Shown piece by piece: positions 2,258 to 61,801 of a DNA stretch of 64,000 nucleotides. The DNA comes from an uncultured Candidatus Saccharibacteria bacterium. GTDB taxonomy: Bacteria; Patescibacteriota; UBA1384; XYA2-FULL-43-10; 1-14-0-10-43-13. The position numbers and the translations under genes are program-made. The notes below the pieces were generated by a model. That model had not been told where the DNA came from. It made no database searches and saw only the letters and a program-made list of their open reading frames with translations. Numbering within the stretch: position 1 is the stretch's first letter; every line of letters starts with the position of its first letter. The DNA lies in NCBI GenBank assembly GCA_964628585.1, contig CAZVMH010000001.1, positions 64,450 to 128,449 of the forward strand. Direction: 5' to 3'.

Positions 2258-2344
2258 GGATCCTGATTCCTTTCCTGTTTATTAAAGAACAATGAAACGG
2301 CCCAGCTGGAATAACCTCTCCAACTGGGCCCTGCGTCTTCTTCG

Positions 2345-2536: not shown

Positions 2537-2585
2537 CTTGAATCACCTCCCTTGCCGATGAAGACGGCACCTAATCTCAGATTAC

Positions 2586-2613
2586 ATAATACCACAGTTG
2601 GCTGTACTGTCAA
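2586..2613 (-). promoter_or_regulatory. Sigma70-type promoter (minus strand: TTGACA, 16-nt spacer, TATTAT) driving the peptide/rSAM/mtnP operon
   Basis: Minus-strand TTGACA (plus 2608-2613) and TATTAT (plus 2586-2591) with 16-nt spacing, about 40 nt upstream of the peptide start codon. Confidence 0.55.
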
Positions 2614-2619
2614 CGCCAA

Positions 2620-9726: not shown

Positions 9727-10514
9727 ATACTCCTTTTCGCGGTGACGATGTCACCTATTCTGAATGGACTTGAGGTAGTTGTGAGCTTGCGCACACAGCC
9801 TACTTCAGCAAGTCCTAGCGAGCTACCCTTGTAGATTGCCCAGGTGCTGTCTGGCAGGTTCTTCATGGCGTGTGAGAAGGTAACAACTTGCCAATCGTTG
9901 CCGTTGATGGCCAACTGCAACTTCTCTCCCTCGGCTAAGCTAGGGGGGAGTAACATCTTTACCTTAGCAACGCCGAAGTTGTCAATATGAACGATTGTGC
10001 CGTCAGCGATCTCTAACCGTGTAAGGCGGTTGGGATCAAACTTGCATTTGTATCCGTTAAGATTGGCCATACTGGCCACCTTGACCGCCTCTGGTGCGTG
10101 GAAATACTTACCACCGAAGGAAATGAACTGAACGCCATCAAGTCCTTCGGATGAATACTCGTACACTTCGCTCAGACCGAAATCGTCCAGTAGCCAGCTT
10201 AAGGCGCCGGTGTTTTCGGCCACAAATCGAATTCCGTTCTGGGTCCGGCCAACAAGCCGGGCTCGATTTGCGCGGGCAGTAGGTAGAGCGTTAGCTACAA
10301 TCAGTAAGACAGTGCTTAACGGATCGCAACTTTCTGCTAGTAGGCGAACCAGAAAGGCGCAATTGATGGTCGAGAATTCTTTGCAGTTGACGAACGGGTC
10401 GATTACTACTTTGTCTTCTTGGCCTAGCGCGTTTATGGTTCGATTGAGCGTCGCATGCAGTTCGTTGCTTGCGACATCGGTGCAATCGGTGAACGTTAGG
10501 ATTCTTGATTTCAT
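9723..10514 (-). CDS. SAM hydroxide adenosyltransferase family protein (DUF62 / fluorinase-chlorinase-like fold)
   Basis: A D-x-FG motif (IVHIDNFGVA) in the C-terminal domain and an N-terminal TDxxD-containing segment. The likely true start is 10514, where an AGGAGG SD lies 7 nt upstream; the longer ORF reaches 10583. Moderate similarity only. Confidence 0.5.
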   Translation of the reverse strand: MKSRILTFTDCTDVASNELHATLNRTINALGQEDKVVIDPFVNCKEFSTINCAFLVRLLAESCDPLSTVLLIVANALPTARANRARLVGRTQNGIRFVAENTGALSWLLDDFGLSEVYEYSSEGLDGVQFISFGGKYFHAPEAVKVASMANLNGYKCKFDPNRLTRLEIADGTIVHIDNFGVAKVKMLLPPSLAEGEKLQLAINGNDWQVVTFSHAMKNLPDSTWAIYKGSSLGLAEVGCVRKLTTTSSPFRIGDIVTAKRSM

Positions 10515-10533
10515 CTGGTTGCCTCCTTGTGGT

Positions 10534-11478
10534 CTACTCGAACACGGACACCTCATAAACACGGTCGTCGGCAGAGAAATCATATGTATCGATAATCTTA
10601 CCGCTCCAGTCTAGCTGAAGTATGCGATGGTTGTCGGCGTCAGCTGCAAAGATAGTATCGTCTTTTTGGCAGTGTATCGCGTCCTGAACCCAGGACATGC
10701 CGAGGTCTGCGCCCAACTCTTGCGTAAGCTCAAGCTGGTCGTTTAAGACCATGATCGTATTAGCAGACGTGTTGCAGAGAAGGTGCCTTCCTGCTCCTGC
10801 GTCTTTCAGGTTGTGGGGATTCTTGAGTCCCCTTAGCACAACCTGAATTGTGTCGGCTTCCTTGTCAATCAGTACAAGCTCGCCCGGATGGAAAAGTGTT
10901 GCCACGATTTTGCTTTCTTTTTCATCCACGTAGCGACAGTAATTGACGTGAGTCGTCTGGTGCAAGGAGGGGTATTCAACTCCCTGGTGTTTTGTCTCTC
11001 GATCAACGATCCTTTCGCCTCCGAGTTGATCTGACTTGTACCCATGCTCGGTAAACAAAAACGAGTAGATCGTTTTTCCAGAAGAGTCGACTTCTACTAT
11101 TGCATCGGTACCAGTGCTGGCTACCATCCAGCCAGAGCTAGTTTTTACCAAAGAATGTGGCTTGTTGAACAAGTCGTTATCTATGGTCGTCAAGATAGCC
11201 TTCTGGGATAACGATATTGCCAATATAGCACCGCTCCTAAGCGTGTTGGCCATCAACAAATCGTTAGATGCACGATAGGTTCCCGTGGGGCACTCGACTG
11301 TCATGCTCCAGGCGATTTTCTTTGTTGCCCAATCAATGATGTCTATACGGCCACCAAGTCTTTTCACGAAAGGCTTGTCGCTTCCTCTCTTTCCTTCGCT
11401 CATCAAAACGGAGTGTCTAGCCCAATGTCTCTTGAGCTGGTCGAAGTCTGTTGACAGATACGATGCCAATAAAAACAT
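10534..11478 (-). CDS. Hypothetical protein, possibly beta-propeller-like; function unknown
   Basis: 314-aa ORF in the GC-rich island, in an operon with the DUF62 gene and tyrS. No confident motif. Confidence 0.4.
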   Translation of the reverse strand: MFLLASYLSTDFDQLKRHWARHSVLMSEGKRGSDKPFVKRLGGRIDIIDWATKKIAWSMTVECPTGTYRASNDLLMANTLRSGAILAISLSQKAILTTIDNDLFNKPHSLVKTSSGWMVASTGTDAIVEVDSSGKTIYSFLFTEHGYKSDQLGGERIVDRETKHQGVEYPSLHQTTHVNYCRYVDEKESKIVATLFHPGELVLIDKEADTIQVVLRGLKNPHNLKDAGAGRHLLCNTSANTIMVLNDQLELTQELGADLGMSWVQDAIHCQKDDTIFAADADNHRILQLDWSGKIIDTYDFSADDRVYEVSVFE

Positions 11479-11490
11479 GTTTCTCCCTTC

Positions 11491-12135
11491 CTATCGACTT
11501 TCATTTATTGCATCAAGGACATCGGGGGATAGTTGTCTTAGCGCCACGCTCTCGTGTTCAAAATCGGTCTTGACCGTGAAACTGGCCGTAACAATTGCGC
11601 TTAGCGGATCGGACGATATGTTGCGATGCAGCGCAACGATAGCTTGAGCAAATTGTGGAATTATTATCGCTTGAGTCCCAACTAATCGGGCTTGCTCGAA
11701 TGCAAATAATTCCGCAGATGTGTGGAGACATTCGGATACAGGTATCGTTGTCTGGCCGCTCACAGTCTTCTTCTCGGGAAGGCATTTCACAAATTCACGA
11801 AAAGTAATGCGTTCCAGCATTGCGATTACTCCCCGCAGATATTCAGAAGATGTCATTGCAGCGCTCATTAGATGCACTGACGAATATAGTCCCGATATAG
11901 CAGAAAAAAACTCGCGGTTGAGCTCTTCTTGCTCTATGGCCGACCGTCCGAAGACTGCCATCGGCAGATAGTCATCCACAAAGATGCTGGGCTTTCTATA
12001 AGTGCAGATCTCAGACAATACTGAGTGCATTAGAAAACCAGGACCTGGTGGTCGGTTCGCCCACAGGACGATCCCGAAGGGGTGTTCAACACTGATCGGA
12101 CCCATGAATCCCTTGATATAGTCCCCAATTTTCAC
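11491..12135 (-). CDS. Hypothetical protein
   Basis: 214-aa ORF with GC-rich coding statistics and the same orientation as its neighbours. No recognisable motif. Confidence 0.4.
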   Translation of the reverse strand: MKIGDYIKGFMGPISVEHPFGIVLWANRPPGPGFLMHSVLSEICTYRKPSIFVDDYLPMAVFGRSAIEQEELNREFFSAISGLYSSVHLMSAAMTSSEYLRGVIAMLERITFREFVKCLPEKKTVSGQTTIPVSECLHTSAELFAFEQARLVGTQAIIIPQFAQAIVALHRNISSDPLSAIVTASFTVKTDFEHESVALRQLSPDVLDAINESR

Positions 12136-13354: not shown

Positions 13355-13801
13355 TTGAGGAGAAATCTGTTTCTTGCAGTAGTGCTCGTAGTTGTGATGC
13401 TAATGCTGGTCGGCTGCGGCGGTGGAGGCGGAGGGGGCTCGAATCCTCCGGGAAACCTGAACAAAGATGTGATCAAGGGAAAGATCACAGGCAACTGGGC
13501 GGGGGCGACCAATCTTGTAGTGCACTTTTACTACATTGATGATTGGGGACACGCCCAGACAGTTGCGACAGCAAACGTGAACCCAGATGGATCTTACCAG
13601 ATCACGATTCCACAGTCGGCAGAAGTGATCGGCGAGTACTACTCGCTCAATCTGTGGCGCGGTTCTATCTACGCGGGATCTGGCAAGGGTCTGTTTAGCT
13701 ACTTTGGGACCAATGATATTTGGCGCTGGGCAGAGGACGCATTTTCGCCAGACATCCCGATATCTGGACGTCAGTTCGACATTGAGTACTGGTCGCCGTA
13801 G
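13355..13801 (+). CDS. Lipoprotein (signal peptide with lipobox LVGC followed by a Gly8-Ser linker); function unknown
   Basis: N-terminal MRRNLFLAVVLVVVMLMLVGCGGGGGGGSNPPG. Short GC-rich gene. Confidence 0.55.
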   Translation: MRRNLFLAVVLVVVMLMLVGCGGGGGGGSNPPGNLNKDVIKGKITGNWAGATNLVVHFYYIDDWGHAQTVATANVNPDGSYQITIPQSAEVIGEYYSLNLWRGSIYAGSGKGLFSYFGTNDIWRWAEDAFSPDIPISGRQFDIEYWSP

Positions 13802-19023: not shown

Positions 19024-22000
19024 ATGTTTAAAAAAGTTGATCCAAAATTGAATCTTCCTGAAGAAGAGGAGAAAGTTCTTAGGTTCTGGGATGAAAACGG
19101 AATTTTTGAGAAGTCTCTCGAAAAAGATAGCCCAAAAGGCAACTTTGTTTTTTATGAGGGCCCTCCGACTGCAAATGGTCATCCTGGTATTCACCATGTG
19201 GAGGCTCGTTCTTTTAAAGATCTTTTTTGTCGTTACAAAACAATGCAGGGCTATTATGTAAAACGAAAAGCTGGTTGGGACACACATGGTTTGCCGGTTG
19301 AATTGCAGGTAGAAAAAGAACTTGGTATTTCTGGCAAGGGTCAGATTGAAACACTTGTTCCTGGCGACAAGAAAGCTTCGATTGAAAAATTTAACAAACT
19401 CTGCAGGGAATCGGTTTGGAAGTTTAAGGGCGAGTGGGAGGAAATGACAGAGCGCATGGCCTATTGGGTAGATATGAATCACCCTTACATTACATATGAT
19501 GCAAACTATATTGAGAGCATTTGGAATATAATGTCTGAGATTGATAAAAAAGGACTTCTATATCGTGGTCACAAGGTCGTGCCATATTGTAATCGTTGCG
19601 GAACTACTCTTTCATCGCATGAAGTAGCACAGGGGTACAAAAATATCGAAGAAGAATCTGTACATATAGTATTAAAGTCAAAAAAAGATCCTGCAATTAA
19701 ATTCTTGGTTTGGACTACGACTCCATGGACGCTGGCAGGCAATGCAGCGATAGCAGTAAATCCTAAGATCGTTTATAGCTTATTGCAGATAGCAGATAGC
19801 AATTCAAAAATTGTTATGGCAAAGAACAGAATAGGTGGTGTTTTAAAAAATATCGATTACAAGGTTATCGAAGAGTTTTCAGGTGAAGAGTTTGTCAGAA
19901 AATACTCTACCGGTGGACAAGATTATGAGCCAATCTACCCAGATGGTGAAAAGTTTGTCGAAGGTGGAGAAAAGTCATACAAAATCATACTTGCCAATTA
20001 TGTTTCTGATTCAGATGGAAGTGGCATAGTTCATATTGCTCCAGCTTTTGGGCAAGATGACTATGTTTGGGGTTATCAAAAAAATCAAATCAAAGTTTTA
20101 AAAACTGTCGACGAAAAGGGGACAGAGCTTGCTGGAGCGGGCAAAGGTAGTTTTGTTAAGAAAGCCGATACCGAAATAAAAGCAGACTTAGAGAAACGAG
20201 AAATTTTATTTAAAACTGAAAAAGTTAAGCACGACTATCCGTTTTGCTGGCGTTGCGACTCCCCTCTTTTATATTTTGCTCGTGACTCTTGGTATATTGC
20301 CTCAAGCAAAATTAAAAACGAACTAGTTGCGAACAACGAACACATTAACTGGAATCCCGCCTACTTGAAGCATGGCCGTTTTGGTAATTGGCTCCAGAAT
20401 ATTGAAGACTGGGCCATCTCACGCGACCGATACTGGGGGACTCCACTTCCTGTCTGGAACTGCCAAAAATGTACCAAGAAAAAAGTGGTGGGTGATTTTA
20501 TGGATTTTAACAAAAGCAAAAATGAAACTATTACAAAACTTATTTTTGTTCGACACGGCGAATCAGAAACTAATGTAGGACATTTCAATTCAATATTACA
20601 CGACAAATGGGGGTTAACTACGCTTGGTAGAACACAAGCCGAGGCTGTTGCCGAAGACCTAAAAGATATTCAGGTTGACGCACTCCTTGTCTCGCCAGTT
20701 TTACGCGCTAAGGAAACAGCCAAGATTATTGAAAATAAGATTGGAATAAAATCTGAAGAAGATGCCCTTATTTCCGAATATGATTTTGGAGAATGGTGTG
20801 AAATAAGTAGAGAAGAACGCCTAAAACTTGAAGAATATAAAAGATACAAAGCAGTAACAACGCTCGAAGAAAAGTATCAATTCAAGCTAGGTGGTGCTGA
20901 GTCAAGAAAAGACGTTGTAACACGTGTAAAAACCTTTCTAGATAAGATTATGAAAAAGTACGAAGGCAAAACTATTGTGGTGGTCAGCCATGGCGGAATT
21001 TTAGCTGCTATTATGAAAAATATTGCCGATATATCCTTAGAAGAATATGATCATGTTGAAGACCATGTTTTACAGGGTCAACCGCATATTCGATATATTA
21101 ACTCAAGGGGCAAGCTTTTTGATCCGCATAAACCATATATTGACGAAATTACTTTTGATTGCGAATGCGGTGGAGAAATGGTTCGAACGCCCGAAGTGCT
21201 AGATGTTTGGCTTGATTCCGGCACTATGCCTTTTTCTCAATACCATTTTCCATTTATTAATAATACTCTTCTCAGAGAGCAATTTCCGGCCGACTTTATA
21301 TCTGAAGCGGTTGACCAAACCAGAGGTTGGTTCTGGACCCTTCTTGCCATTTCAACAATTCTTAAAGGCGAGTCGCCATACAAGAACGTTATCTCCTTGG
21401 GTCATGTTTTGGATGAAAAAGGCAAGAAGATGTCAAAGTCTTTGGGCAATATCATTTTCCCAATGCAAGCATTCGATAAATATGGTGCCGACATTATTAG
21501 ATATTATTTCTTCTGTGTTAATGGACCAGGTGAACCAAAACTCTTTTCTGACAAAGAAGTTACTTCATTATCGAGAAATTTATTCTTAACACTTTGGAAC
21601 GTTTTTTCATTCTTTATTACTTATGCTTCAATTGATAATTTCGAACCAAAGGAAAATATTGAACGCAAAAATATTTTGGATCGATGGGTATTGGCTAAAT
21701 TTAATAAACTGGTTGAAGAAGTAAATGAAGGATTAGACCACTACGATACTTTCAAACCAAGTAACTTAATAATTGAATTTGTCGGTGAACTTTCAACTTG
21801 GTATGTAAGACGATCAAGAAGAAGATTCTGGAAGAGTGAGAACGATAGTGATAAAATTGAAGCTTTTCAAACTTTGTATGAAATTATCATACAACTAGCA
21901 AAGTTGCTGGCACCGTTCACTCCGATGTTTGCTGAAACCATTTATTCTTATTTGCGAACCGAGAAAGATCCAATTTCAATTCACCTAACCGATTATCCAA

Positions 22001-22515
22001 AACCGGTAAAAATGGATGATTTAGTAATTAAAGAAATGGATACGGCCAGAAAGATTGTAGAGGCTGGTCTGTCAAAAAGAGCAAGTGCAGGGATTAAAGT
22101 TCGTCAACCTTTAAGCAAATTAACTTACAATGGTAGTAAATTAGATTCCGAATTAGAAACAATCATTGCCGAAGAAGTAAATGTGAAGTCTGTAGAAAAC
22201 GACTCAAAAATCACAGAGGTAATAATCGACACAGAAATTTCTCCAGAACTGAAAATGGAAGGGACTGCCAGAGAGATAATCCGAAACATCCAATCGCTAC
22301 GAAAGAAGACAGGTTTTGAAGTTGAAGACAGGATCGGTATGGTCTATCAAACAGAATCAAAATTTCTAGCAGATACTCTGGAAAAATTTGAAGAAGTAAT
22401 TAGCAAAGAAATTTTAGCCAAATCGATCAAATCTGGTAAATTAAAATCCGAAGGGACAGAAGAATTCACCATCGATGGCGAGAAAATTCAGATTGGAATT
22501 AACAAAAATAATTGA
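19024..22515 (+). CDS. ileS: Isoleucyl-tRNA synthetase, type 2 (Thermus/eukaryote-like), with a ~190-aa histidine-phosphatase (PGAM-like) domain inserted between the two halves of the zinc knuckle
   Basis: IleRS type-2 motifs PPTANGHPGIHH and KKMSKSLGN, an editing-domain motif GSGIVHIAPAFGQDDY, and a Zn knuckle C480QKC...C713EC. Between the knuckle halves sits a complete histidine-phosphatase domain (IFVRHGESETN, VSPVLRAKET, VVVSHGGI). Total length is 1163 aa. Confidence 0.85.
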   Translation: MFKKVDPKLNLPEEEEKVLRFWDENGIFEKSLEKDSPKGNFVFYEGPPTANGHPGIHHVEARSFKDLFCRYKTMQGYYVKRKAGWDTHGLPVELQVEKELGISGKGQIETLVPGDKKASIEKFNKLCRESVWKFKGEWEEMTERMAYWVDMNHPYITYDANYIESIWNIMSEIDKKGLLYRGHKVVPYCNRCGTTLSSHEVAQGYKNIEEESVHIVLKSKKDPAIKFLVWTTTPWTLAGNAAIAVNPKIVYSLLQIADSNSKIVMAKNRIGGVLKNIDYKVIEEFSGEEFVRKYSTGGQDYEPIYPDGEKFVEGGEKSYKIILANYVSDSDGSGIVHIAPAFGQDDYVWGYQKNQIKVLKTVDEKGTELAGAGKGSFVKKADTEIKADLEKREILFKTEKVKHDYPFCWRCDSPLLYFARDSWYIASSKIKNELVANNEHINWNPAYLKHGRFGNWLQNIEDWAISRDRYWGTPLPVWNCQKCTKKKVVGDFMDFNKSKNETITKLIFVRHGESETNVGHFNSILHDKWGLTTLGRTQAEAVAEDLKDIQVDALLVSPVLRAKETAKIIENKIGIKSEEDALISEYDFGEWCEISREERLKLEEYKRYKAVTTLEEKYQFKLGGAESRKDVVTRVKTFLDKIMKKYEGKTIVVVSHGGILAAIMKNIADISLEEYDHVEDHVLQGQPHIRYINSRGKLFDPHKPYIDEITFDCECGGEMVRTPEVLDVWLDSGTMPFSQYHFPFINNTLLREQFPADFISEAVDQTRGWFWTLLAISTILKGESPYKNVISLGHVLDEKGKKMSKSLGNIIFPMQAFDKYGADIIRYYFFCVNGPGEPKLFSDKEVTSLSRNLFLTLWNVFSFFITYASIDNFEPKENIERKNILDRWVLAKFNKLVEEVNEGLDHYDTFKPSNLIIEFVGELSTWYVRRSRRRFWKSENDSDKIEAFQTLYEIIIQLAKLLAPFTPMFAETIYSYLRTEKDPISIHLTDYPKPVKMDDLVIKEMDTARKIVEAGLSKRASAGIKVRQPLSKLTYNGSKLDSELETIIAEEVNVKSVENDSKITEVIIDTEISPELKMEGTAREIIRNIQSLRKKTGFEVEDRIGMVYQTESKFLADTLEKFEEVISKEILAKSIKSGKLKSEGTEEFTIDGEKIQIGINKNN

Positions 22516-22546
22516 TATCGAACGTAAGTTTGGGCATAATCAAATT

Positions 22547-23935
22547 ATGGAGATGAAACTTTTCAATACATTGGGACGCAAACAGGAAATCTTTAAGCCG
22601 ATCAAAAAAAATGAAGTCGGTATTTATTCCTGTGGCCCAACAGTTTATTGGAACCAGCACATCGGAAACATGTATGCCTACGTTGAGTGGGATTTGCTTA
22701 ATCGAACTCTAAAATATCTTGGCTATAAAACAACCTGGGTCATGAATATTACTGATGTAGGCCATTTAACTTCAGACGAAGACACCGGAGAAGACAAACT
22801 GGAAAAGGGCGCCAAGAGCGAGGGGATCTCTGTCTGGAAGATCGCCGATAAATATATTGGTCAATTTAAGGAAAGCATGAATCTTCTTAATATTAAAGAA
22901 CCAGACGAATTGCCTCGAGCAACAGACCATATTGCAGAACAAATCAAGATGATAGAGGAGATGGAAAAAAGAGGCTTTACCTATAAAACTAAAACAGGAA
23001 TTGTTTTTGATACTTCTAAATTCCCTGATTATGCCAAGTTTGCCAATTTAAATCTTGAGGAACAAAAAGCTGGCTCTCGTGTCGAAGTAGATGAGGAAAA
23101 GAAGAATCCTTGGGATTTTTTGCTCTGGATTACAAATCAGCCAAATCATGTAATGCAATGGGATTCACCTTGGGGCAAGGGCTTCCCTGGCTGGCATATT
23201 GAATGTACAGCCATGTCAACAAAGTATCTTGGCAATAAATTTGATATTCATACTGGTGGTAAAGAACATATCCCAGTTCATCATACCAACGAAATTGCTC
23301 AGGCTTACGGAGCTTTTGGCGAGCAGACAGCCAACTATTGGCTTCACAACGAGTGGGTTACCTTTGGTGGAGATAAAATCGCAAAGAGTGCTGGCAGTGC
23401 AATTTTAATTACAGATTTAGAGGAAAAGGGGTTCTCTCCGCTTTCTTATCGATATTTGATTATGACCTCACATTACCGGACCGGTTTAAATTTTACCTGG
23501 GAAAGCTTGGAGAGTGCACAAATCGCTCTAAATCGATTAAAAAATTCAATTAAAAAACTTCAGGAAGCATCAAACGATAATATCAAATCCAATCCAAAGG
23601 AAGACATAAACTGGGATGCAAAGTTCAAAAATGCGATCGCAGACGATCTGGGCACTCCACAAGCCATTGCAATTTTATGGGACATGTTAAAAGGGGATAT
23701 GAGCGCCAAAGAAAAAATCGAATTAGTGGCAAAGTGGGATAAAGTCTTCGGGCTAGACTTGTTAGAAATCAAAAAAGAAGAAATACCTGCCGAAGTATCC
23801 GAATTGGCTAAAGAACGCGCCAATGTCAGAAAAGAGAAAGCTTGGCAAAAGTCAGATGAACTAAGAGATAAAATATCGGAACTAGGTTACGAGGTGATAG
23901 ACACTTCAAGAGGATTCGAAATTAGAAAGAAATAA
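22547..23935 (+). CDS. cysS: Cysteinyl-tRNA synthetase
   Basis: The N-terminus MEMKLFNTLGRKQEIF..CGPTVYWNQHIGN (HIGH region) and a KIAKSAG (KMSKS-like) motif. The start could be 22547 or 22553; the longer ORF from 22475 overlaps ileS. Confidence 0.8.
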   Translation: MEMKLFNTLGRKQEIFKPIKKNEVGIYSCGPTVYWNQHIGNMYAYVEWDLLNRTLKYLGYKTTWVMNITDVGHLTSDEDTGEDKLEKGAKSEGISVWKIADKYIGQFKESMNLLNIKEPDELPRATDHIAEQIKMIEEMEKRGFTYKTKTGIVFDTSKFPDYAKFANLNLEEQKAGSRVEVDEEKKNPWDFLLWITNQPNHVMQWDSPWGKGFPGWHIECTAMSTKYLGNKFDIHTGGKEHIPVHHTNEIAQAYGAFGEQTANYWLHNEWVTFGGDKIAKSAGSAILITDLEEKGFSPLSYRYLIMTSHYRTGLNFTWESLESAQIALNRLKNSIKKLQEASNDNIKSNPKEDINWDAKFKNAIADDLGTPQAIAILWDMLKGDMSAKEKIELVAKWDKVFGLDLLEIKKEEIPAEVSELAKERANVRKEKAWQKSDELRDKISELGYEVIDTSRGFEIRKK

Positions 23936-23949
23936 CGAAAGGACATAGC

Positions 23950-24951
23950 ATGAAAAAAGTCATACTTACAGGCGACAGACCAACTGGAAAACTTCATCTA
24001 GGACATTTTATAGGCTCCCTTCAAAATAGAGTAAAACTTCAGGACGAATATGAGGAGTATATTCTTATCGCAGATATGCAAGCTCTGACTGACAATGCTG
24101 AAAATCCAGAAAAAGTTAGTAGCAATATTTTAGAGGTTGTCTTAGATTATTTGGCAGTTGGAATTGACCCAGATAAAGCCACGATCTGTCTTCAATCAGA
24201 GCTGCCAGCGCTTGCAGAGTTAACAATGTACTATTTAAATCTTGTTACATTGGCTCGTCTGCAAAGGAATCCAACAGTAAAAGATGAAATGAAGCAAAAA
24301 GGTTTTGAGGCCAATGTTCCGGTCGGTTTTTTAACTTACCCTATTAGTCAAGCAGCCGATATTACTGCTTTTAAAGCCGGTTTTGTTCCAGTGGGAGAAG
24401 ATCAGGTACCCGTTTTAGAACAGACGAACGAGATAGTTAAAAAATTTAATGCTAGTTATAAGACAGATGTTTTAGTTGAATGCGAGCCAATTTTGTCGAA
24501 GGTTGGAAGACTTCCTGGCACAGATGGCAGTGCTAAGATGAGCAAGTCACTAGAAAATTGCATTTATCTTTCTGACTCTGATGAGGAAATAAAGAAAAAG
24601 GTAATGAGCATGTACACAGATCCTGCCCATATCAAAGCAGAAGATCCAGGCAAGATTGAAGGTAACACAGTGTTCATTTATCTTGATGCCTTTGATCTAG
24701 AGAAAGAGGCAGTACAAAAACTAAAAGAACAATATCAAAAAGGTGGCTTAGGCGACGTGGCGGTTAAAGAAAGATTGGTTGGCGTATTGCAGAATCTAAT
24801 TAAACCAATTAGAGAAAGAAGAGAAGCGCTAGCAAAAGATCCTAAAAAAATAATGGAAATTGTTAAAGCCGGTACGATAAAAGCGCAAAAAGTGACCGAA
24901 GTAACTCTCGAAGAGGTCAAAAAGGCAATGAAATTAAACTATTTTAACTAA
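23950..24951 (+). CDS. trpS: Tryptophanyl-tRNA synthetase
   Basis: 333-aa ORF with ILTGDRPTGKLHLGHFIG (HIGH) and KMSKSLEN (KMSKS) motifs and TrpRS-like length. Confidence 0.85.
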   Translation: MKKVILTGDRPTGKLHLGHFIGSLQNRVKLQDEYEEYILIADMQALTDNAENPEKVSSNILEVVLDYLAVGIDPDKATICLQSELPALAELTMYYLNLVTLARLQRNPTVKDEMKQKGFEANVPVGFLTYPISQAADITAFKAGFVPVGEDQVPVLEQTNEIVKKFNASYKTDVLVECEPILSKVGRLPGTDGSAKMSKSLENCIYLSDSDEEIKKKVMSMYTDPAHIKAEDPGKIEGNTVFIYLDAFDLEKEAVQKLKEQYQKGGLGDVAVKERLVGVLQNLIKPIRERREALAKDPKKIMEIVKAGTIKAQKVTEVTLEEVKKAMKLNYFN

Positions 24952-24952
24952 T

Positions 24953-27151
24953 ATGAAACAGTTCGAAAAAACCTGGCAACACGATAAATTTGAAGAAAAA
25001 ATATACTCTGATTGGGAAAAATCGGGATTTTTTCGGCCAGAATACAGAATACAGAATACAGATAACAGTAAAACTGAACTTCAATATGATCGTGAAAAAG
25101 ACGGGAATCCTTTTGTTATTGCAATGCCACCACCAAATGTTACGGGTAAACTTCACCTGGGTCATTCACTGGTGTTAACACTTGAAGACATTATGATTCG
25201 GTTTCATAGAATGAAAGGGCAGCCTTCTCTTTGGATTCCTGGGATGGACCACGCTGGTATTGCGACCCAAACGGTGGTAGATAAAGCATTAAAGAAAAAA
25301 GGCATCAACAAAAACGATCTTGGACGCGAAAAGTTTATTGAGGAAGTTTGGAAATGGAAAAAGGAATATGGCGACATTATTCTAGAACAGACTCGCAAAA
25401 TGGGTGCCTCCTGTGACTGGTCGCGTGAACGATTCACTATGGATGAGGGATTATCAAATTCTGTAAAAGTAGCTTTTGTTGATTTCTATAAAAAAGGTTT
25501 AATCTATCGCGGTGAATACGTTGTGAACTGGTGTCCTAGATGCCAAACTGCCATTGCTGACGACGAAGTAGAACATATTGAGCAAAAAACCAAGCTTTAC
25601 TATTTTAAGTATGACAAAAATTTCCCAATCACCATTGCCACAACCAGACCAGAAACAAAGTTGGGCGATGTTGGGGTGGCGGTTAATCCAAATGATAAAA
25701 GATACAAAAATTACATCGGTAAAAAATTCGAAGTAAATATTGACGGCGTAAAGCGAAAGATTCTTGTTTTTGGCGATAGATCGGTAGATGAAAAATTTGG
25801 CACAGGCGCCGTTGGCGTAACTCCGGCCCACTCACTTATCGACTGGAAAATGGCAGAGGAGAACAAACTTCCCGTAATAAAAGTTATAGACAAATATGGC
25901 AAAATGACCGAGGAGGCAGGTAAATACGCAGGACTTAAAGCAAAAGAAGCGGGCGATAAATTAGTTGAATATTTTAAAGCAAATGGTCTTCTAGAAAAAG
26001 AAGAAGACTACGACAACAATCTTTCCACCTGTTATAGATGCAACACCGCCATTGAACCAATTCCTTCACTCCAATGGTTTGTAAAAATGAAACCTTTGGC
26101 CGAAAAGGCCAAAGGGGCGGTTAAATCCGGGCAAATTAAAATAATTCCAGAGCAGTATGAAAAAGTATACTTTCACTGGATGGACAATATCCGAGACTGG
26201 TGTATCTCGCGGCAACTTTGGTGGGGACATCAAATTCCAGTTTGGTATAAAGGCAAAGAAGTTTATTGCGGACTGGAAGCTCCAAAAGGAAACGGTTGGG
26301 AGCAGGATCCGGATGTTTTAGACACCTGGTTCTCGTCTGGTCTCTGGCCGTTTTCGACATTGGGTTGGCCCGATAAAACAAAAGATTACAATTACTTTTT
26401 TCCGAACACTGTAATGGAAACGGGAAAAGACATTCTTTTTTTCTGGGTTGCTAGAATGATTATGATGAGTTTGGAACTAACCGGCAAGATTCCGTTTGAA
26501 ACAGTTTATTTGCATGGTATGGTTCAAGATGAGCATAACAAGAAAATGAGCAAATCCTCTGGCAATGCTCTTGACCCACTGACGCTGATTGAAAAATATG
26601 GCACAGACGCAATTAGAATGTCCTTGGTTGTTGGGGCGACTCCTGGCCAGAATATTGCCATGAGCGACGCAAAGATTAAAGGCTACAGAAATTTCTCCAA
26701 TAAAATATGGAATGCCTCACGTTTTGTAACACTTAGAGTTTCAGAGGGCGATCTGCAGGCAGGTGAAGTTGGTCCTCAAAAAATTGAAAACCTAAATATT
26801 GATGCCAAAACATTGACCGAAGCAGACAAAGAAATTTTGTCTTTGCATAAAGAAATCGTTTCGGCCGTAACAGAAAAAATCGAAAAGTTTCGTTTCTCGC
26901 AAGCGGGCGAAGAGCTTTACGAATATTTCTGGCATCAATTTTGTGATATTTACATCGAAAAAGCAAAATTACAGCTTGAAGGAGAAAATAAGGAAAATAC
27001 TAAAAAGATTTTAATTAAAATACTATCAGAATCACTTGCCATGCTTCACCCTTTCGTACCATTTGTTACAGAAGCGGTCTGGCAAGAACTCCGCGAAATT
27101 TACCCAAAACTTTCAAAATCAATAATGATCTCTAGCTGGCCCAATATTTAA
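24953..27151 (+). CDS. valS: Valyl-tRNA synthetase (short form, 732 aa, lacking the C-terminal coiled-coil)
   Basis: PPPNVTGKLHLGH, the editing-domain motifs TTRPETKLGD and GTGAVGVTPAHSLID, and KMSKSSGN. An in-frame tandem heptamer (gaataca)x3 lies near the 5' end. Confidence 0.8.
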   Translation: MKQFEKTWQHDKFEEKIYSDWEKSGFFRPEYRIQNTDNSKTELQYDREKDGNPFVIAMPPPNVTGKLHLGHSLVLTLEDIMIRFHRMKGQPSLWIPGMDHAGIATQTVVDKALKKKGINKNDLGREKFIEEVWKWKKEYGDIILEQTRKMGASCDWSRERFTMDEGLSNSVKVAFVDFYKKGLIYRGEYVVNWCPRCQTAIADDEVEHIEQKTKLYYFKYDKNFPITIATTRPETKLGDVGVAVNPNDKRYKNYIGKKFEVNIDGVKRKILVFGDRSVDEKFGTGAVGVTPAHSLIDWKMAEENKLPVIKVIDKYGKMTEEAGKYAGLKAKEAGDKLVEYFKANGLLEKEEDYDNNLSTCYRCNTAIEPIPSLQWFVKMKPLAEKAKGAVKSGQIKIIPEQYEKVYFHWMDNIRDWCISRQLWWGHQIPVWYKGKEVYCGLEAPKGNGWEQDPDVLDTWFSSGLWPFSTLGWPDKTKDYNYFFPNTVMETGKDILFFWVARMIMMSLELTGKIPFETVYLHGMVQDEHNKKMSKSSGNALDPLTLIEKYGTDAIRMSLVVGATPGQNIAMSDAKIKGYRNFSNKIWNASRFVTLRVSEGDLQAGEVGPQKIENLNIDAKTLTEADKEILSLHKEIVSAVTEKIEKFRFSQAGEELYEYFWHQFCDIYIEKAKLQLEGENKENTKKILIKILSESLAMLHPFVPFVTEAVWQELREIYPKLSKSIMISSWPNI

Positions 27152-31311: not shown

Positions 31312-33561
31312 CTAATAGTTTCGGATTTTTGCGTCGAGAGCTTTTTCTATAGAGCTAATAATCTTTTCAACAATTTCTTCGGCTTCTTTGTCGGTCAGAG
31401 TTTTTGATTCAGCTTGAAGATAAATGTGGTAAGCTACATTCTTTTTGTCTTCGCCAAATTTGTCGGAAGCGAACTCATCAAAAAGTTCGACTCTATTAAT
31501 TAGTTCCGATTCTTCATATATCAAATTTGTAATTTTGTCTGCTTCAACACTGGCGTCGACGATAAAAGCGACGTCTCGAGTAATGGATGGGTATTTTGAA
31601 ACGGCTCGGTAATGAATTTGTTTGTCAGAAAGTGTGAGCTCAATATTATCTTTATTAATTTTTGAGTTCTTATTAATATCATCAATTTTGATCTCAAAGG
31701 TATAGGTGACCGGTTTTTTGATTTTAAATTTAAGCAGATCATCTCGAGAAAGTTCGTTAACTTGAATATCAAGATCCAATTTCAATTTATCTTTCAAATT
31801 AGAAATAGCAGATTCGATTTCTTTTTTGGCGTTCTTTCCGCTTGAGGCAAGGGCCAAATGGGCTTCTTCGGAGCTGGTTGTGAAAACATTGCCAATTTCG
31901 AAGATTAAAACTGGGTCAAAAATCGGATTTTTGGCAACGGCTTTCAAAAGTGAAGGCAATAAAAATTTTCGCAGATATTTATTTTCTGGTTGAACTGGAT
32001 TAGCAACTTCTAATAGATCGGTTTTGTCTAATTTAAGCGCTTCCAAGTCGGCTTCGCTTAAAAACGAATAAGTGTTAACTTCAGAAAAGCCGGCCTCAAC
32101 TAAAACATCTTTCATGTGCTCTTTAAAATGGTAAATTCCACTTTTTGGCTTTTCTGTCTTTGGTGTCTCAACCTTGGCAATATTATTCAAATCAAATATT
32201 CGCCCAATTTCCTCGGCCAAATCTTGCCAGATGGTAACATCATGACGCCATGAAGGGGCTTGAACCATATTATCTTTCAGTACGAAGCCCAAGTTTTCAA
32301 GATATTTCTTGGCGTCAGCCTCTTTGATGTCTGTTCCAAGTAAATTATTAATGCGCTCCAATTCAAATGGAACCCAAGTGTTTTCATAAGTGCTAGCAAT
32401 ATTTGTTTTCTTTCCAGTAATTTTCCCACCACAGAGTTCAACTATCAGACTAGTCGCTTTGTCTAAGGCTTTCTCGGTCATCTCAGGGTCAATTCCTCTT
32501 TCAAAACGGTAGCTAGCTTCAGTTGCCAGCCCCAACTTTTTAGCAGTTTGGCGAATATTTACAGGATTAAATTCAGCAGATTCCAAAATTATCGAAGTTG
32601 TGTTATCGTCAACTTCAGAATTTAGTCCACCCATAACACCAGCTAGCGCAACGGCTTTTTCTGGATCGGCAATCACGAGCATTTCTTCACTCAAAATTCG
32701 TTTCTCATTATCAAGAGTGATAAATTCTTCATCTTTTTTGGCTTCTCGAACAACAATATTGTTATCAGATATTTTCTTGGCATCAAAAGCATGAAGGGGT
32801 TGGCCTAAATCAAACATTATGTAGTTGGTGATATCTACCAAATTATTGATCGATTTTCCGTCCATTGCCTCAATTTTTTTGACTAGCCAGTCAGGAGAAG
32901 GACCAATTTTAATATCAGAAATGGTGATTCCACAGTAGCGAGGACATTTTTCAGGAGATAAAATTTCAATTAAAAAGTCAGAATCCTTGTCATCGATTTT
33001 CGGAATATCAAGATCCAATTTCTTGTCCAATACGGCTGAAAGTTCTCGCGCCATACCAACATGCGAAAGACAATCGCCACGATTTGGCGTGATTTCAAGG
33101 TCAAAAATTGCATCGCTATCGAGTAGATCGACAACTGATTTGCCCAACGGTGTATTGGCGGGCAATTGCATTATGCCTTCGTGATTTTCGGAAATGCCGA
33201 GTTCCTTTTCACTGCAAAGCATGCCGAAGGATTTTTCACCTCGGATCAAAGCTTCTTTTATCTCAAAATCAGAAAATTTAGTACCAATCTTGGCTAGTGG
33301 CACAATCTGATCGACAGCAATATTTGGGGCGCCACAGACAATATTAAATTCTTCTTTGCCGTCGGTAACCCTGGCAAGTTGAAGTTTGTCGGCATTAGGA
33401 TGTTTTTTGACTTCTAAAATTTTTACGGCGACAACTTTTTTGTCAATTTTGCCCAAAACTTCATCTACTAGAGAGCCTGAAAAAGTCAAAAGATCGGCAA
33501 TCTCTTCGTTTGATTTATCTGTCTTAACATATTCAGTTAACCAACTTCGTAATATCTTCAT
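31312..33561 (-). CDS. pheT: Phenylalanyl-tRNA synthetase beta subunit
   Basis: 749-aa ORF with the N-terminus MKILRSWLTEYV and PheT-like B3/4, B5 and FDX-ACB segments. It is coupled to pheS through an ATGA overlap. Its 3' end contains repeat copy B (31331-31500). Confidence 0.85.
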   Translation of the reverse strand: MKILRSWLTEYVKTDKSNEEIADLLTFSGSLVDEVLGKIDKKVVAVKILEVKKHPNADKLQLARVTDGKEEFNIVCGAPNIAVDQIVPLAKIGTKFSDFEIKEALIRGEKSFGMLCSEKELGISENHEGIMQLPANTPLGKSVVDLLDSDAIFDLEITPNRGDCLSHVGMARELSAVLDKKLDLDIPKIDDKDSDFLIEILSPEKCPRYCGITISDIKIGPSPDWLVKKIEAMDGKSINNLVDITNYIMFDLGQPLHAFDAKKISDNNIVVREAKKDEEFITLDNEKRILSEEMLVIADPEKAVALAGVMGGLNSEVDDNTTSIILESAEFNPVNIRQTAKKLGLATEASYRFERGIDPEMTEKALDKATSLIVELCGGKITGKKTNIASTYENTWVPFELERINNLLGTDIKEADAKKYLENLGFVLKDNMVQAPSWRHDVTIWQDLAEEIGRIFDLNNIAKVETPKTEKPKSGIYHFKEHMKDVLVEAGFSEVNTYSFLSEADLEALKLDKTDLLEVANPVQPENKYLRKFLLPSLLKAVAKNPIFDPVLIFEIGNVFTTSSEEAHLALASSGKNAKKEIESAISNLKDKLKLDLDIQVNELSRDDLLKFKIKKPVTYTFEIKIDDINKNSKINKDNIELTLSDKQIHYRAVSKYPSITRDVAFIVDASVEADKITNLIYEESELINRVELFDEFASDKFGEDKKNVAYHIYLQAESKTLTDKEAEEIVEKIISSIEKALDAKIRNY

Positions 33562-33563
33562 AA

Positions 33564-34346
33564 TTAAAATTGCTTAAGGAATCTTAAGTCACCGCTCTTA
33601 AAAAGACGAATTTCTTTAATACCGTATTTGATCATGATGGCTCGTTCAATGCCGGGACCAAAAGCGTAACCAGAATATTCATTCGAATCAATTCCCATAT
33701 TTTCTATAACTTTAGGGTGAACCATACCAGCGCCACCTAACTCAAACCATTTGCCACGGAATTTCATCTCAAATTCGATTGAAGGTTCGGTAAAAGGAAA
33801 GTGGTGAGGACGAAATCGTAAAATGGTGTCTTCTCCGAGCAATTCTTTATATAGTTTTTCCAAAATATCGAAAAGCTGTCCCATCGAGACTTTTTTATCA
33901 ATATAAAGACCCTCAATCTGCATGAAGGTATTTTCGTGTCCAGAATCGGTTGCTTCATTTCTATAACATACACCGGGTACGATAACTTTGATTGGTGGCT
34001 TATGACTTTCGCCATATTTTACCTGCGAGTTGGAAGTTTGAGTTCGAAGTAACCTGCCATCGGTTAGCCAAAAGGTATCCTGAACATCTCGAGATGGGTG
34101 ACTAGCAGGCACATTGAGCGCATCAAAGTTGTACCATTCAGTATCAACTTCTGTTCCCTCATAAACGTCAAAACCGTAGCGTTCAAAAAAAAGCACCGCT
34201 TGGCGAATTGCACTAGTAATCGGATGTAAATTTCCCTTAATCATTACTATTATAGTAACAAAAGTTTGTGCTAAGTTCAATTGAGGTATTGCATTAATAT
34301 AGTAGAAGGCATATTTTGAAACTAATGAGGGAAAGAATAAAGACAA
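33564..34346 (-). CDS. pheS: Phenylalanyl-tRNA synthetase alpha subunit, N-terminally truncated (catalytic core only; the probable true start is MIKGNLHPITS at 34244, giving ~226 aa)
   Basis: Class II motifs: GNLHPIT (motif 1 region), FDALNVPASHPSRD, and the motif 2 and 3 regions (FRPHHFPFTEPS, GFAFGPGIERAIM). The first 34 aa of the long ORF are hydrophobic non-protein-like sequence. Confidence 0.8.
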   Translation of the reverse strand: MSLFFPSLVSKYAFYYINAIPQLNLAQTFVTIIVMIKGNLHPITSAIRQAVLFFERYGFDVYEGTEVDTEWYNFDALNVPASHPSRDVQDTFWLTDGRLLRTQTSNSQVKYGESHKPPIKVIVPGVCYRNEATDSGHENTFMQIEGLYIDKKVSMGQLFDILEKLYKELLGEDTILRFRPHHFPFTEPSIEFEMKFRGKWFELGGAGMVHPKVIENMGIDSNEYSGYAFGPGIERAIMIKYGIKEIRLFKSGDLRFLKQF

Positions 34347-60441: not shown

Positions 60442-60549
60442 GTAAATACCTTTCTTATTGCTATGTTAAAAATTGTTAAATGTATTATTGCCTAGCAATT
60501 TTTTTGTAAAACTATTGTATAATAAAATTAATTAACAAAGGAGCTATTA

Positions 60550-61305
60550 ATGGAAGATAAATTTCGCAAATTGCGTACAATGAACATCTGGGCCATGTTC
60601 TTGCATTTGATCTCAGGTATTTTGATGGTCGTGCTGTCAACCAACTTAAAAGTGCCTGTCACGGCCTCGTTCTTAAAATTTGATGCTTTGACTCAAACTC
60701 TTGTGCCAGAATTAAGTACACTGTTTTCAATTAAGCTCGGTTTACTTGTTTCATCATTTCTTTTTATGTCAGCAATTGCTCATTTTATGATCGCTTTTCC
60801 ATTTAACAAATTTTATAACAACAATCTTAAAAGTCACATCAACATTGCTCGTTGGATAGAATATGCATTTTCTTCATCGGTAATGATAGCGGTAATATCA
60901 TTATTGGTGGGGATTAGTGATATTGCAACTTTAATAGTTATCATGTTCTTAAACGCAATGATGATTTTGTTTGGCTGGATGATGGAGCTTCACAACCAAA
61001 CTACAGAGAAAACTAACTGGACATCCTTTATTTTTGGTTGTTTTGCTGGAATTGGCCCATGGATAGCCATTGCTATCTATCTTGCTAGCCCAGGGAGTAC
61101 TTCGAATCCTCCGACTTTTGTTTATTGGATCTTCTTTTCGATTTTTATCTTTTTCAATATTTTTGCCATCAATCAGGTTCTCCAATACAAAAAAGTCGGC
61201 AAGTGGAAGGATTACCTATATGGAGAGAGAGTATACATCATATTATCTCTTGTAGCCAAATCACTTCTTGCCTGGCAAGTTTTTGCTGGAACCTTGAGGC
61301 CATAA
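60550..61305 (+). CDS. Heliorhodopsin-like 7TM retinal protein
   Basis: 251 aa with seven predicted TM helices. A Lys sits in TM7 (SLVAKSLLAWQ) and a Glu in TM3 (RWIEYAFSSSVM). ILFGWMME and GPWIAIAIYLASPGSTS segments resemble heliorhodopsins as I recall them (the 48C12 family). Confidence 0.65.
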   Translation: MEDKFRKLRTMNIWAMFLHLISGILMVVLSTNLKVPVTASFLKFDALTQTLVPELSTLFSIKLGLLVSSFLFMSAIAHFMIAFPFNKFYNNNLKSHINIARWIEYAFSSSVMIAVISLLVGISDIATLIVIMFLNAMMILFGWMMELHNQTTEKTNWTSFIFGCFAGIGPWIAIAIYLASPGSTSNPPTFVYWIFFSIFIFFNIFAINQVLQYKKVGKWKDYLYGERVYIILSLVAKSLLAWQVFAGTLRP

Positions 61306-61322
61306 CTCTACATAAAAGAAAA

Positions 61323-61346
61323 AGGGCTCCGGCCAGATCCGGGGCC
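61323..61346 (-). terminator. GC hairpin (GGGCTCCGG/CCGGGGCCC with one G-U) between the convergent heliorhodopsin and 61349..61729 genes; the U-tract is on the minus strand
   Basis: Inverted repeat followed on the minus strand by TTTTCTTTTAT. Confidence 0.5.
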
Positions 61347-61348
61347 CA

Positions 61349-61729
61349 CTAATCTTGGTTATACCAGGGGAGTTCTTTGCCGAAGACTCTTTCGCCGTCG
61401 GCGATCATACGGGCGCTTTTGCGCCTGATTTTCTCGTGCTCATCGACTCTTTGGCCGACCCACACGATCGAACCCTCAAGAAGCTCTCCTAGCAGGTTAT
61501 TCTGCTTGATAGTGTACTTGGCCATTGGGATAGCCAAGTACGTCCTGACCCTGCTGTTTCTGCAGCAATCCATGGTTGGGACTTCAAACCGAAATACCTG
61601 CCCTTTGGTAGTGCGAGCAGTGAACTGCTCCCACGTACCCGTAACGCTTCCTTTTCGCGGAGCAGACATGCTCCTCACTCCCTTCATTTTTGATACATCA
61701 ACAATATCACAAAAATGACAAAAAGTCAA
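61349..61729 (-). CDS. Hypothetical protein in a GC-rich islet
   Basis: 126-aa ORF (TTG start in the track; an internal Met start is possible). About 55% GC against the AT-rich surroundings. No recognisable motif. Confidence 0.35.
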   Translation of the reverse strand: MTFCHFCDIVDVSKMKGVRSMSAPRKGSVTGTWEQFTARTTKGQVFRFEVPTMDCCRNSRVRTYLAIPMAKYTIKQNNLLGELLEGSIVWVGQRVDEHEKIRRKSARMIADGERVFGKELPWYNQD

Positions 61730-61801
61730 TATATAGCCAACTATTTAACAATAATTCGTAAAGTGTTATGATTTTACTAAAGCAATAAAACAAGGATAAT
61801 T

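Follow-up and report, generated by a model that had tools for sequence, protein, structure and literature searches.

The solved structures closest to the protein described here belong to two heliorhodopsins (HeRs): TaHeR, from the Thermoplasmatales archaeon SG8-52-1 (PDB 6is6 and 7u55, with the E108D mutant 7clj), and HeR 48C12 (PDB 6su3 and 6uh3), the founding member of the family, which came from an actinobacterial fosmid. HeRs are reported to be confined to monoderm organisms. Among genomes of the Candidate Phyla Radiation (CPR), Chiriac et al. 2022 (PMC9166423) counted 115 rhodopsins in 86 genomes, 98 of them HeRs, spread over Saccharimonadia, Dojkabacteria, ABY1, Microgenomatia and other classes; SLVAK was among the commonest motifs of transmembrane helix 7 (TM7), and mitigation of oxidative stress was proposed as the role of these proteins. 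Bulzu et al. 2021 (PMC8612252) analysed the genes around HeRs in monoderms, Patescibacteria among them, and made the case for a photosensory role. Partners have been demonstrated for AbHeR (glutamine synthetase, PMC9529153), TfHeR (photolyase, PMC9769723) and OcHeR (the ABC exporter OmrDE, PMC11109279). Here, we analyze a stretch of 64,000 nucleotides, referred to throughout as the window, in which positions 60550-61305 carry a gene that is, with high probability, a canonical non-pumping HeR of a Patescibacteria (CPR)-type monoderm bacterium. The gene and the positions on which this assignment turns are as follows.

60550-61305, plus strand: HeR gene, ATG start, 251 aa, from the open reading frame (ORF) and from profile and PDB matches
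60518-60523, plus strand: TATAAT box with a TG before it, read from the sequence
60537-60543, plus strand: Shine-Dalgarno AAAGGAG, 6 nt upstream of the ATG
60859-60861, plus strand: codon of E104, the Schiff-base counterion in TM3 (RWIEY), aligned with E107 of 48C12 and E108 of TaHeR
61246-61248, plus strand: codon of S233, the serine of SxxxK, aligned with S237 of 48C12 and S234 of TaHeR
61258-61260, plus strand: codon of K237, the retinal Schiff-base lysine in TM7 (SLVAK), aligned with K241 of 48C12 and K238 of TaHeR

The family assignment comes from profiles and structures alike. The protein scores 336 bits against Pfam PF18761 (cutoff 26.7; E=1.4e-100), with residues 8-249 spanning positions 1-242 of the 242 in the profile, and 349 bits against the NCBIfam equivalog NF038020, 'heliorhodopsin HeR' (cutoff 100). 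A Pfam search with the 251-aa protein matched no other family, and the type-1 microbial rhodopsin profile PF01036 gave no match at E<=0.01; the TM7 motif is SLVAK, not DxxxK. SxxxK, as opposed to the type-1 DxxxK, was the HeR criterion used in PMC9166423. The best solved structures are TaHeR 6is6/7u55 (E=6e-77), its point mutant 7clj and 48C12 6su3/6uh3 (~4e-60), and printed alignments over all seven helices give 55% identity to TaHeR and 46% to 48C12. The motifs NIARWIEYAFSSSVM, ILFGW, GPWIAIAIYLASPGSTS and KVGKWKDYLYGERVYIILSLVAKSLLAWQ are present in the translation. A first-pass annotation, made from the DNA letters, had described a 251-aa ORF with seven TM helices and these motifs and had called it a HeR; the ORF, helices and motifs were all found as described, and the PF18761 search bears out the identity. 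By sequence comparison, 60550-61305 encodes a full-length HeR, and nothing found contradicts the family assignment. The TATAAT site upstream can be called only a putative promoter, because a consensus scan of the upstream region gave no full -35/-10 pair.

Functional residues were mapped from printed alignments to TaHeR and 48C12. The chain-to-native offset of TaHeR is 6 and was validated twice: PDB 7clj and 6is6 differ solely by an E to D change at the residue aligned with E104, and I199, F203, Q213 and E227 of TaHeR, as named in PMC9448325, are I, F, Q and E in the chain. On this numbering, the TM7 lysine and TM3 glutamate singled out in the first-pass annotation do occupy the positions of the Schiff-base lysine and the counterion. 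The HeR histidine pair is conserved as H19 and H78 (H23 and H80 in 48C12), as are S74, N98, W102, Y105, S108, E146, Q209, Q212 and E226. Residue alignment thus places the internal proton-accepting polar cluster (H19, H78, S74, N98, S108, Q209, Q212 and E226) in the window HeR.

The alignments to 6is6 and 6su3 both run end to end, interrupted by one or two short indels in loops. Against 6is6, all seven helices are aligned with a single 3-residue indel, and the 246 aligned residues include the Schiff-base lysine, the counterion, the His pair and SxxxK; TM7 and the C-terminal end are nearly identical. TaHeR differs in its archaeal host, where that of the window HeR is bacterial (CPR), in a TM5-TM6 loop that is 3 residues longer in the window HeR (PGSTSNPP), and at two positions: Q209, as in 48C12, is Met in TaHeR, and I139 is N143. 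Every one of H23, S76, H80, N101, E107, E149, Q213, S237 and K241 of 48C12 is kept, together with the PGSTS loop motif; the two proteins come from hosts of different phyla. Three changes from 48C12 line the pocket (W163 to I161, I167 to F165 and V171 to G169) and may shift the absorption maximum.

Hydropathy resolves seven TM spans, with TM3 and TM4 merged in the plot. Lys and Arg residues number 12 in the N-terminus and loops 2-3, 4-5 and 6-7, and 2 on the opposite side, a distribution from which the positive-inside rule predicts the inverted, N-in/C-out topology that the first-pass annotation had attributed to HeRs. It had also stated that ion pumping is not confirmed for the family. In V2HeR3 of Emiliania huxleyi virus 202 (PMC9448325), E191 in TM6 and W195 are hallmarks of proton transport, and their TaHeR equivalents are I199 and F203. 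The corresponding residues here are I198 and F202, so that the window HeR shares fold and counterion with V2HeR3 (E226 equals its E215) and, like TaHeR, lacks the TM6 hallmark Glu and the Trp by the retinal. Because Ile and Phe stand in place of Glu and Trp, the window HeR is expected to be non-transporting and is grouped with TaHeR and 48C12.

The gene content of the window points to the kind of host. Besides seven aminoacyl-tRNA synthetase genes, it encodes GyrA/B, IF-2, CdaA-YbbR, sortase, a VWA/SpaA-type pilin, DUF4012, an L,D-transpeptidase, a LysM-CHAP hydrolase and a 1666-aa Kelch-repeat surface protein; no rRNA, tRNA or tmRNA genes occur in the 64 kb. GC content is 38.7% for the window and 36.5% for the HeR ORF. 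The set looks like that of a monoderm-type, CPR-like, reduced Patescibacteria-type organism (the first-pass annotation had supposed a reduced lineage), and the sortase, the SpaA-type pilin with its VWA domain, CdaA-YbbR and LysM-CHAP agree with the reported restriction of HeRs to monoderms. Housekeeping genes gave no placement, since the related loci have too few of them in common with the window and the best hits reach just 25-40% identity. We infer a patescibacterial host, probably related to Berkelbacteria.

The same HeR is present, identical, on five metagenome contigs, and a scan of one genome per GTDB species yielded at least 565 loci with relatives. The closest, at 76-79% identity, are from Patescibacteria/Berkelbacteria metagenome-assembled genomes (MAGs) that are GTDB species representatives. 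Among the best 20 relatives (63-79% identity), 17 are labelled Patescibacteria, Berkelbacteria or Saccharibacteria; Actinomycetota and Chloroflexota follow. Related loci are referred to below by labels of the form L001, which is a contig of the window's own genome. In the sister lineage L086, the HeR is 91% identical in protein sequence, and its differences fall 17/10/112 by codon position, which indicates strong purifying selection. Some HeR loci from TPA_asm MAGs are titled 'uncultured Gammaproteobacteria'; of these, L036 matches L024 over 6.9 kb at 82% and L043 matches L041 over 15 kb at 90% nucleotide identity, both counterparts being Patescibacteria-titled MAGs. Given this 82-90% DNA identity to Patescibacteria loci, the 'Gammaproteobacteria' labels are unreliable and provide no evidence of a HeR in a diderm, a possibility that we therefore rejected.

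The first-pass annotation held that a HeR in a reduced genome is a notable find. This view is not supported: with 98 CPR HeRs published (PMC9166423), at least 565 loci carrying relatives and CPR MAGs as the closest among them, a HeR in such a genome is expected, because published surveys have already documented the combination. The published CPR HeRs (PMC9166423, PMC8612252) share with the window HeR the host kind, SLVAK, a topology inferred to be inverted and the lack of a retinal pathway, with sensing or protection from oxidative stress as the suggested role. That set is mostly from Saccharimonadia, whereas the nearest representatives of the window HeR are labelled Berkelbacteria or Patescibacteria, and no histidine kinase or response regulator lies near the window HeR, unlike in the published set. 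The value of the window HeR is confirmatory, in that a monoderm host, no retinal pathway nearby, an intact fenestration and no pump hallmarks are found together.

The first-pass annotation had suggested a check for blh or other retinal genes elsewhere in the genome, and this was carried out on the window and the following 7 kb of contig L001. Neither among the window ORFs nor in the 7 kb beyond the window end are there carotenoid, blh or carotenoid-cleavage dioxygenase genes. Jaffe et al. 2022 (PMC9296517) likewise found no blh in rhodopsin-bearing Saccharibacteria, and reported that TaHeR quickly takes up external retinal through an opening in the apoprotein and that HeRs and CPR type-1 rhodopsins bind external retinal efficiently. 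A preprint (10.1101/2025.11.27.691015) describes a fenestration and carotenoid-site motif in which positions 162 and 206 are aromatic, 166 and 210 hold small residues and 169 is Gly; it reports this motif in 91% of HeRs and ties it to monoderm hosts. If 48C12 numbering is assumed, in which 48C12 itself fits the motif, the window HeR carries F160, F202, C164, A206 and G167, the same as or equivalent to the 48C12 residues at 162/166/169/206/210.

These data allow a mechanism to be proposed. All-trans retinal would be bound as a protonated Schiff base on K237 (TM7 SLVAK), with E104 in TM3 as the single counterion; both assignments follow from residue homology. The N-terminus is predicted by the positive-inside rule to be cytoplasmic. 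By analogy with TaHeR and 48C12, light would isomerize the retinal, the Schiff-base proton would move to an internal His19/His78/water cluster and stay inside the protein, and a long-lived intermediate would signal to, or modulate, a partner protein through the cytoplasmic loops. Because the organism is very probably unable to make retinal, it would have to obtain the chromophore by scavenging, either from its surroundings or from a host cell. The likely route is the lateral TM5/TM6 fenestration, whose motif is intact and which might also admit a carotenoid antenna. We infer a retinal-binding photoreceptor with a scavenged chromophore that modulates a partner, most plausibly for photoprotection.

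The genes around the HeR were examined for such a partner. The window neighbours are CdaA, YbbR, LysM-CHAP, HIT, LiaF-TM and a GyrI-like protein, and none of these is syntenic with HeR in 80 related loci, the one exception being L027, where a HIT gene and HeR lie 2.8 kb apart. When ORFs within 5 kb of HeR were clustered de novo, an ABC exporter appeared in 15 of the 80 loci (within 1 kb in 2) and nothing else in more than 6. A Pfam census of 145 immediate HeR neighbours gave at most 4 per family: SDR/epimerase 4, DUF2177 3, photolyase 3 and Pyr_excise 3. With no recurring window neighbour and no dominant family in either analysis, a conserved HeR partner defined by synteny was rejected. The census agrees with the ten neighbour groups published in PMC11109279, since photolyase, SDR, DUF2177 and ABC exporters recur among the relatives. 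In that study, the 'helR alone' class makes up 61%, and the window HeR falls in this majority class and appears to stand alone. AbHeR, TfHeR and OcHeR belong to the same family and presumably share its regulatory-helper logic, but none of their partner genes adjoins the window HeR. What HeRs signal to is made no more testable by the window HeR, because no conserved partner lies beside it.

The sole recurrent functional theme beside related HeRs is repair of UV and DNA damage. In L024, L036 and L032, all Patescibacteria-type loci, HeR is followed on its own strand, after 10-90 bp, by Pyr_excise (PF03013, a pyrimidine-dimer DNA glycosylase), which is also present in the window's own genome.

L024:10769-11098, L036:10769-11098 and L032:10846-11466: Pyr_excise genes
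L042:8386-8727: Pyr_excise gene, 1.3 kb from HeR
L001:17022-17366: Pyr_excise gene of the window's own genome, 6.3 kb downstream of HeR and beyond the window end

On contig L001, a superoxide reductase gene lies further on past Pyr_excise. Like photolyase, Pyr_excise is thus found repeatedly near HeR in Patescibacteria, and the link to photoprotection is the stronger for it; light-triggered photoprotection would be the most likely output because UV/DNA-damage repair is the only recurrent theme among the relatives. Between the HeR neighbourhood and Pyr_excise, L001:13052-16654 holds a type I restriction-modification module, with an HsdM-like N6_Mtase/Eco57I protein and an HsdS Methylase_S protein; this module may be an insertion that split the two apart.

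An uncharacterized protein of ~260 aa with an N-terminal membrane anchor also recurs right beside HeR in several Patescibacteria loci. It has no match in Pfam, PHROG, PADLOC or NCBIfam.

L087:426-1223, minus strand: ~260-aa anchored protein, here inserted in the slot between HeR and HIT of a strain close to the window organism
L024:9083-9844, L036:9076-9840 and L047:9168-9938: ~260-aa anchored protein
L041 and L043, ~11.0-12.0 kb: ~260-aa anchored protein

Several points weigh against the photoreceptor model or its details. Past residue homology, its photochemistry, scavenging and output are carried over from relatives and context. The search for retinal genes covered ~71 kb of the genome, and retinal auxotrophy of the whole organism is an extrapolation from it. 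The UV-repair association is weak, at ~7% of loci, and is not adjacent in the window. Several of the nearest relatives come from groundwater MAGs, according to their record titles, which calls the availability of light into question. The HeR may not be a stand-alone gene: 108 bp without a predicted terminator separate it from the upstream CHAP-LysM gene, and co-transcription of the two is possible. Finally, gene content and the relatives of the HeR itself, as opposed to a phylogenetic marker, are the basis of the host placement.

Three other views of the HeR were weighed against these data. The window HeR could mainly be a two-antenna light harvester, its biological role set by a xanthophyll that is taken up from outside and recruited to the TM5/TM6 fenestration. 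In favour, the protein fits the proposed carotenoid-binding-site motif at all five positions, and the preprint finds that motif in most HeRs and ties it to monoderm hosts. However, the proposal comes from a single preprint built largely on sequence motifs and docking, and a near-universal motif says nothing specific about the window HeR. An antenna by itself also defines no output, such that it complements a sensor instead of competing with it; as an account of the main role we regard it as unlikely. It is very unlikely that the HeR is a light-independent relic, or has a retinal-free role, in an organism that lacks retinal synthesis and perhaps lives in the dark. The lack of a retinal pathway in the 71 kb inspected and the groundwater origin of close relatives would fit, but all retinal-pocket and Schiff-base residues are intact, the codon-position pattern of the L086 comparison is one of strong purifying selection, and external retinal is bound efficiently by proteins of this kind (PMC9296517). 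A light-driven or light-gated proton transporter like V2HeR3, which would supply or dissipate proton-motive force in an energy-poor cell, is highly improbable: certain HeRs do move protons (PMC9448325), the counterparts of E226 and Q212 lie in the E215/E205 region of V2HeR3, and a fermentative CPR cell would gain from such a supplement, but the gate hallmarks are absent and the proteins closest overall, TaHeR and 48C12, are hydrophobic in their extracellular half and do not transport. The photoreceptor model is therefore preferred for the HeR.

Downstream of the HeR, the first-pass annotation had noted a GC-rich islet (61306-61740) encoding a 126-aa protein. The composition stands, at 49.4% GC compared with 36.5% for the HeR and 38.7% for the window, but the protein does not: the 126-aa ORF, from a TTG at 61729, is the mechanical maximum only. 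The supported gene is a predicted 106-aa product on the minus strand that starts at ATG 61669, because sister-contig gene calls agree, an orthologue begins at the same Met, and a promoter-like site and a Shine-Dalgarno sequence lie inside the longer ORF.

61349-61669, minus strand: small lineage-restricted gene P0001, 106 aa, ATG at 61669 and stop at 61349, which makes up the GC-rich islet
61729-61701, minus strand: promoter-like site of the small gene, TTGACT-17-TATTGT with TG, from a consensus scan
61682-61671, minus strand: Shine-Dalgarno GGGAGTGAGGAG of the small gene
61324-61347: GC-rich hairpin GGGCTCCGG-CCAGAT-CCGGGGCCC, between the convergent HeR and small-gene stop codons
61514-61541, minus strand: conserved 10-12 bp hairpin in the small gene, an inverted repeat over the codons for YLAIPMAKY

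The small gene converges on the HeR across a 43-bp gap with one common hairpin, whose 8 pairs are all invariant in three lineages. Because the T-run TTTTTCTTTT directly follows this hairpin on the minus strand, the hairpin is read as the intrinsic terminator of the small gene, and it is probably bidirectional. In the strain variant L087, the -35/-10 stretch has hardly changed despite a strongly diverged coding sequence downstream. In the promoter, the -10 box stands between the arms of a perfect 9-bp inverted repeat (TCATTTTTG ... CAAAAATGA; 61684-61718, minus strand), and a TGAC-N5-GTCA palindrome lies over the -35 box (61701-61729, minus strand).

The family is very small. The orthologue P0002, at 68% identity, was the sole match in a word search of 5.8 billion proteins, and when 1.84 billion representatives were scanned in full with HMMER, P0003 (76 aa, E=1.4e-5) was the one addition; scans of metagenome (241 million records) and viral DNA found no further member. 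P0002 occupies the same HeR-X-HIT slot in the sister species (L086), where HeR is 91% and HIT 76% identical to the window's. P0003 (L087) lies beside a HIT gene 96% identical to that of the window, with a nearly identical promoter and an extra 265-aa gene in between; the HeR-HIT slot thus differs even among closely related strains. All three small genes have 49-53% GC in surroundings of ~40%, and GC3, the GC content at third codon positions, is 0.57 in the islet against ~0.28 in the host.

Evidence that the islet is coding comes from the pattern of substitutions, which fall 19/15/44 by codon position over the gene and 4/6/23 in its N-terminal half, and from indels that stay in frame. Both the start and the stop codon are kept, and in L086 the antisense ORF is interrupted. 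On these grounds, a non-coding islet with a spurious ORF was rejected. The product has no family in Pfam, PHROGs, PADLOC or NCBIfam; it is soluble and not hydrophobic, with a predicted beta-beta-alpha-beta-alpha fold. The small gene is linked to the HeR by position only.

The transcript of the small gene is unusually stable. Its 391-nt region folds at -160.3 kcal/mol, compared with -122.6 +/- 5.9 for dinucleotide shuffles (z=-6.4), and for the coding sequence alone z is -7.3 (window), -6.1 (L086) and -3.7 (L087). In control segments, HeR and HIT range from +1.1 to -1.8, and 5 of 6 segments of other GC-rich genes range from +0.2 to -2.6; the remaining one, in the TyrRS gene, gives -4.6. When codons were shuffled synonymously, with protein and codon usage kept, the three small genes retained z values of -6.0, -4.5 and -3.9 (0 of 150 shuffles each), whereas HeR and HIT were at ~0. 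Since the signal persists under synonymous shuffling, the stability of the fold is encoded in codon choice. The TyrRS segment (window 8901-9221, minus strand), with z=-4.6 against dinucleotide and -3.5 against synonymous-codon shuffles (0 of 150), shows that the islet gene is not the sole unusually structured coding stretch in the genome.

A consensus structure was computed with RNAalifold from the three-sequence alignment and contains 83 pairs. Of the consensus cells, 89.7% are paired, compared with 40-47% when the partners are slid. Pairs changed on both sides number 16, against 1-9 slid and 7.8 +/- 2.1 shuffled (0 of 500), a covariation count that is suggestive and not statistical proof, as there are three related sequences only and the structure was derived from them. 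The hairpin at 61514-61541 occupies the homologous position in the window, L086 and L087 and contains two compensatory pairs, C-G to U-A and G-C to C-G. In the consensus fold, the Shine-Dalgarno region lies in a long-range 5'-3' helix. The islet was also considered as a known structured RNA, and this was rejected: at gathering thresholds, Rfam gave no hit anywhere in the window, and when the islet was searched permissively, only a chance-level suhB match (E=0.7) came up. With RNA structure encoded at synonymous sites in three lineages, the small gene is a clean case for the study of structured or dual-function RNA in CPR genomes.

The tightly folded islet mRNA recalls hok-type toxin mRNAs. As in hok-type type I toxins and dual-function RNAs, a short ORF has its own strong promoter and terminator, a very stable fold is kept via synonymous sites, and a 5'-3' closing helix covers the ribosome-binding site. 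The islet differs in that its product is a 106-aa soluble protein with a predicted beta-beta-alpha-beta-alpha fold and not a hydrophobic peptide, in that no antisense RNA was identified and in that no family is matched. Of the features of a type I toxin-antitoxin system, the structured mRNA is seen in the islet; there is no antisense gene and no homology to known toxins or defence proteins.

Three readings of what the islet gene does were weighed, none of which we consider probable. It might be a selfish or foreign cassette, a type-I-toxin-like or other mobile small gene lodged between HeR and HIT and unrelated to light sensing. The foreign GC and GC3, a slot that varies in near-identical strains through the strongly diverged L087 protein and the extra 265-aa gene, and the tight mRNA fold that draws in the Shine-Dalgarno region would all be consistent with a cassette. 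However, neither inverted or direct terminal repeats nor an integrase, transposase, antisense RNA gene, PADLOC hit or PHROG hit accompany it, the protein is soluble and not hydrophobic, and the 5'-3' helix pairs a purine-rich stretch with a U-tail and may have arisen by chance; a cassette thus remains doubtful. With lower probability, the HeR-HIT gap hosts an undescribed kind of small gene: a fast-evolving, compositionally foreign ORF of 76-106 aa whose transcript is independently selected for a very stable, conserved structure and which may act as a dual-function RNA and protein, for example as a module resembling type I toxins or as an antisense regulator acting on the convergent HeR gene. 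Even if this speculative reading were true, the heliorhodopsin itself would stay ordinary.

Functional coupling of the small gene to the HeR, either as a soluble transducer or as an antisense regulator through convergent transcription over the shared terminator, has a slim chance of being correct. All 3 known family members sit in the HeR-X-HIT slot, the gene is convergent with HeR across the 43-bp gap with one hairpin in common, the HeR-sense side of that hairpin has no good U-tract, such that read-through is plausible, and the RNA structure is under selection. However, the three lineages are close kin (HeR 91%, HIT 76-96%), which makes the adjacency a single evolutionary observation; the gene is present in 0 of 80 other HeR loci, and searches of 15 billion proteins, 241 million metagenome records and the viral contigs gave no more members. 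The small protein also diverges fast (68% and 41% identity) while the HeR is conserved.

Elsewhere in the window, gene blocks at 96-4302, 8533-12135 and 13355-13801 have a GC3 of 0.45-0.65, compared with 0.23-0.38 in the remainder. They encode a PNP-family phosphorylase, a radical SAM/SPASM enzyme, an ABC-F ATPase, TyrRS and several family-less proteins, and this compositional mosaic suggests a foreign origin for the blocks. Aminoacyl-tRNA synthetase genes are unusually concentrated in the 64 kb (8533-9726, 19024-27151 and 31312-34346) and comprise IleRS, CysRS, a 333-aa class Ib enzyme, a 732-aa class Ia enzyme, PheRS alpha and beta and the GC-rich TyrRS. The isoleucyl-tRNA synthetase (19024-22515, plus strand; 1163 aa) matches TIGR00392 with 884 bits in two stretches, and a complete histidine-phosphatase/PGAM-like domain (PF00300, aa 506-678) lies between the two halves of its catalytic core.

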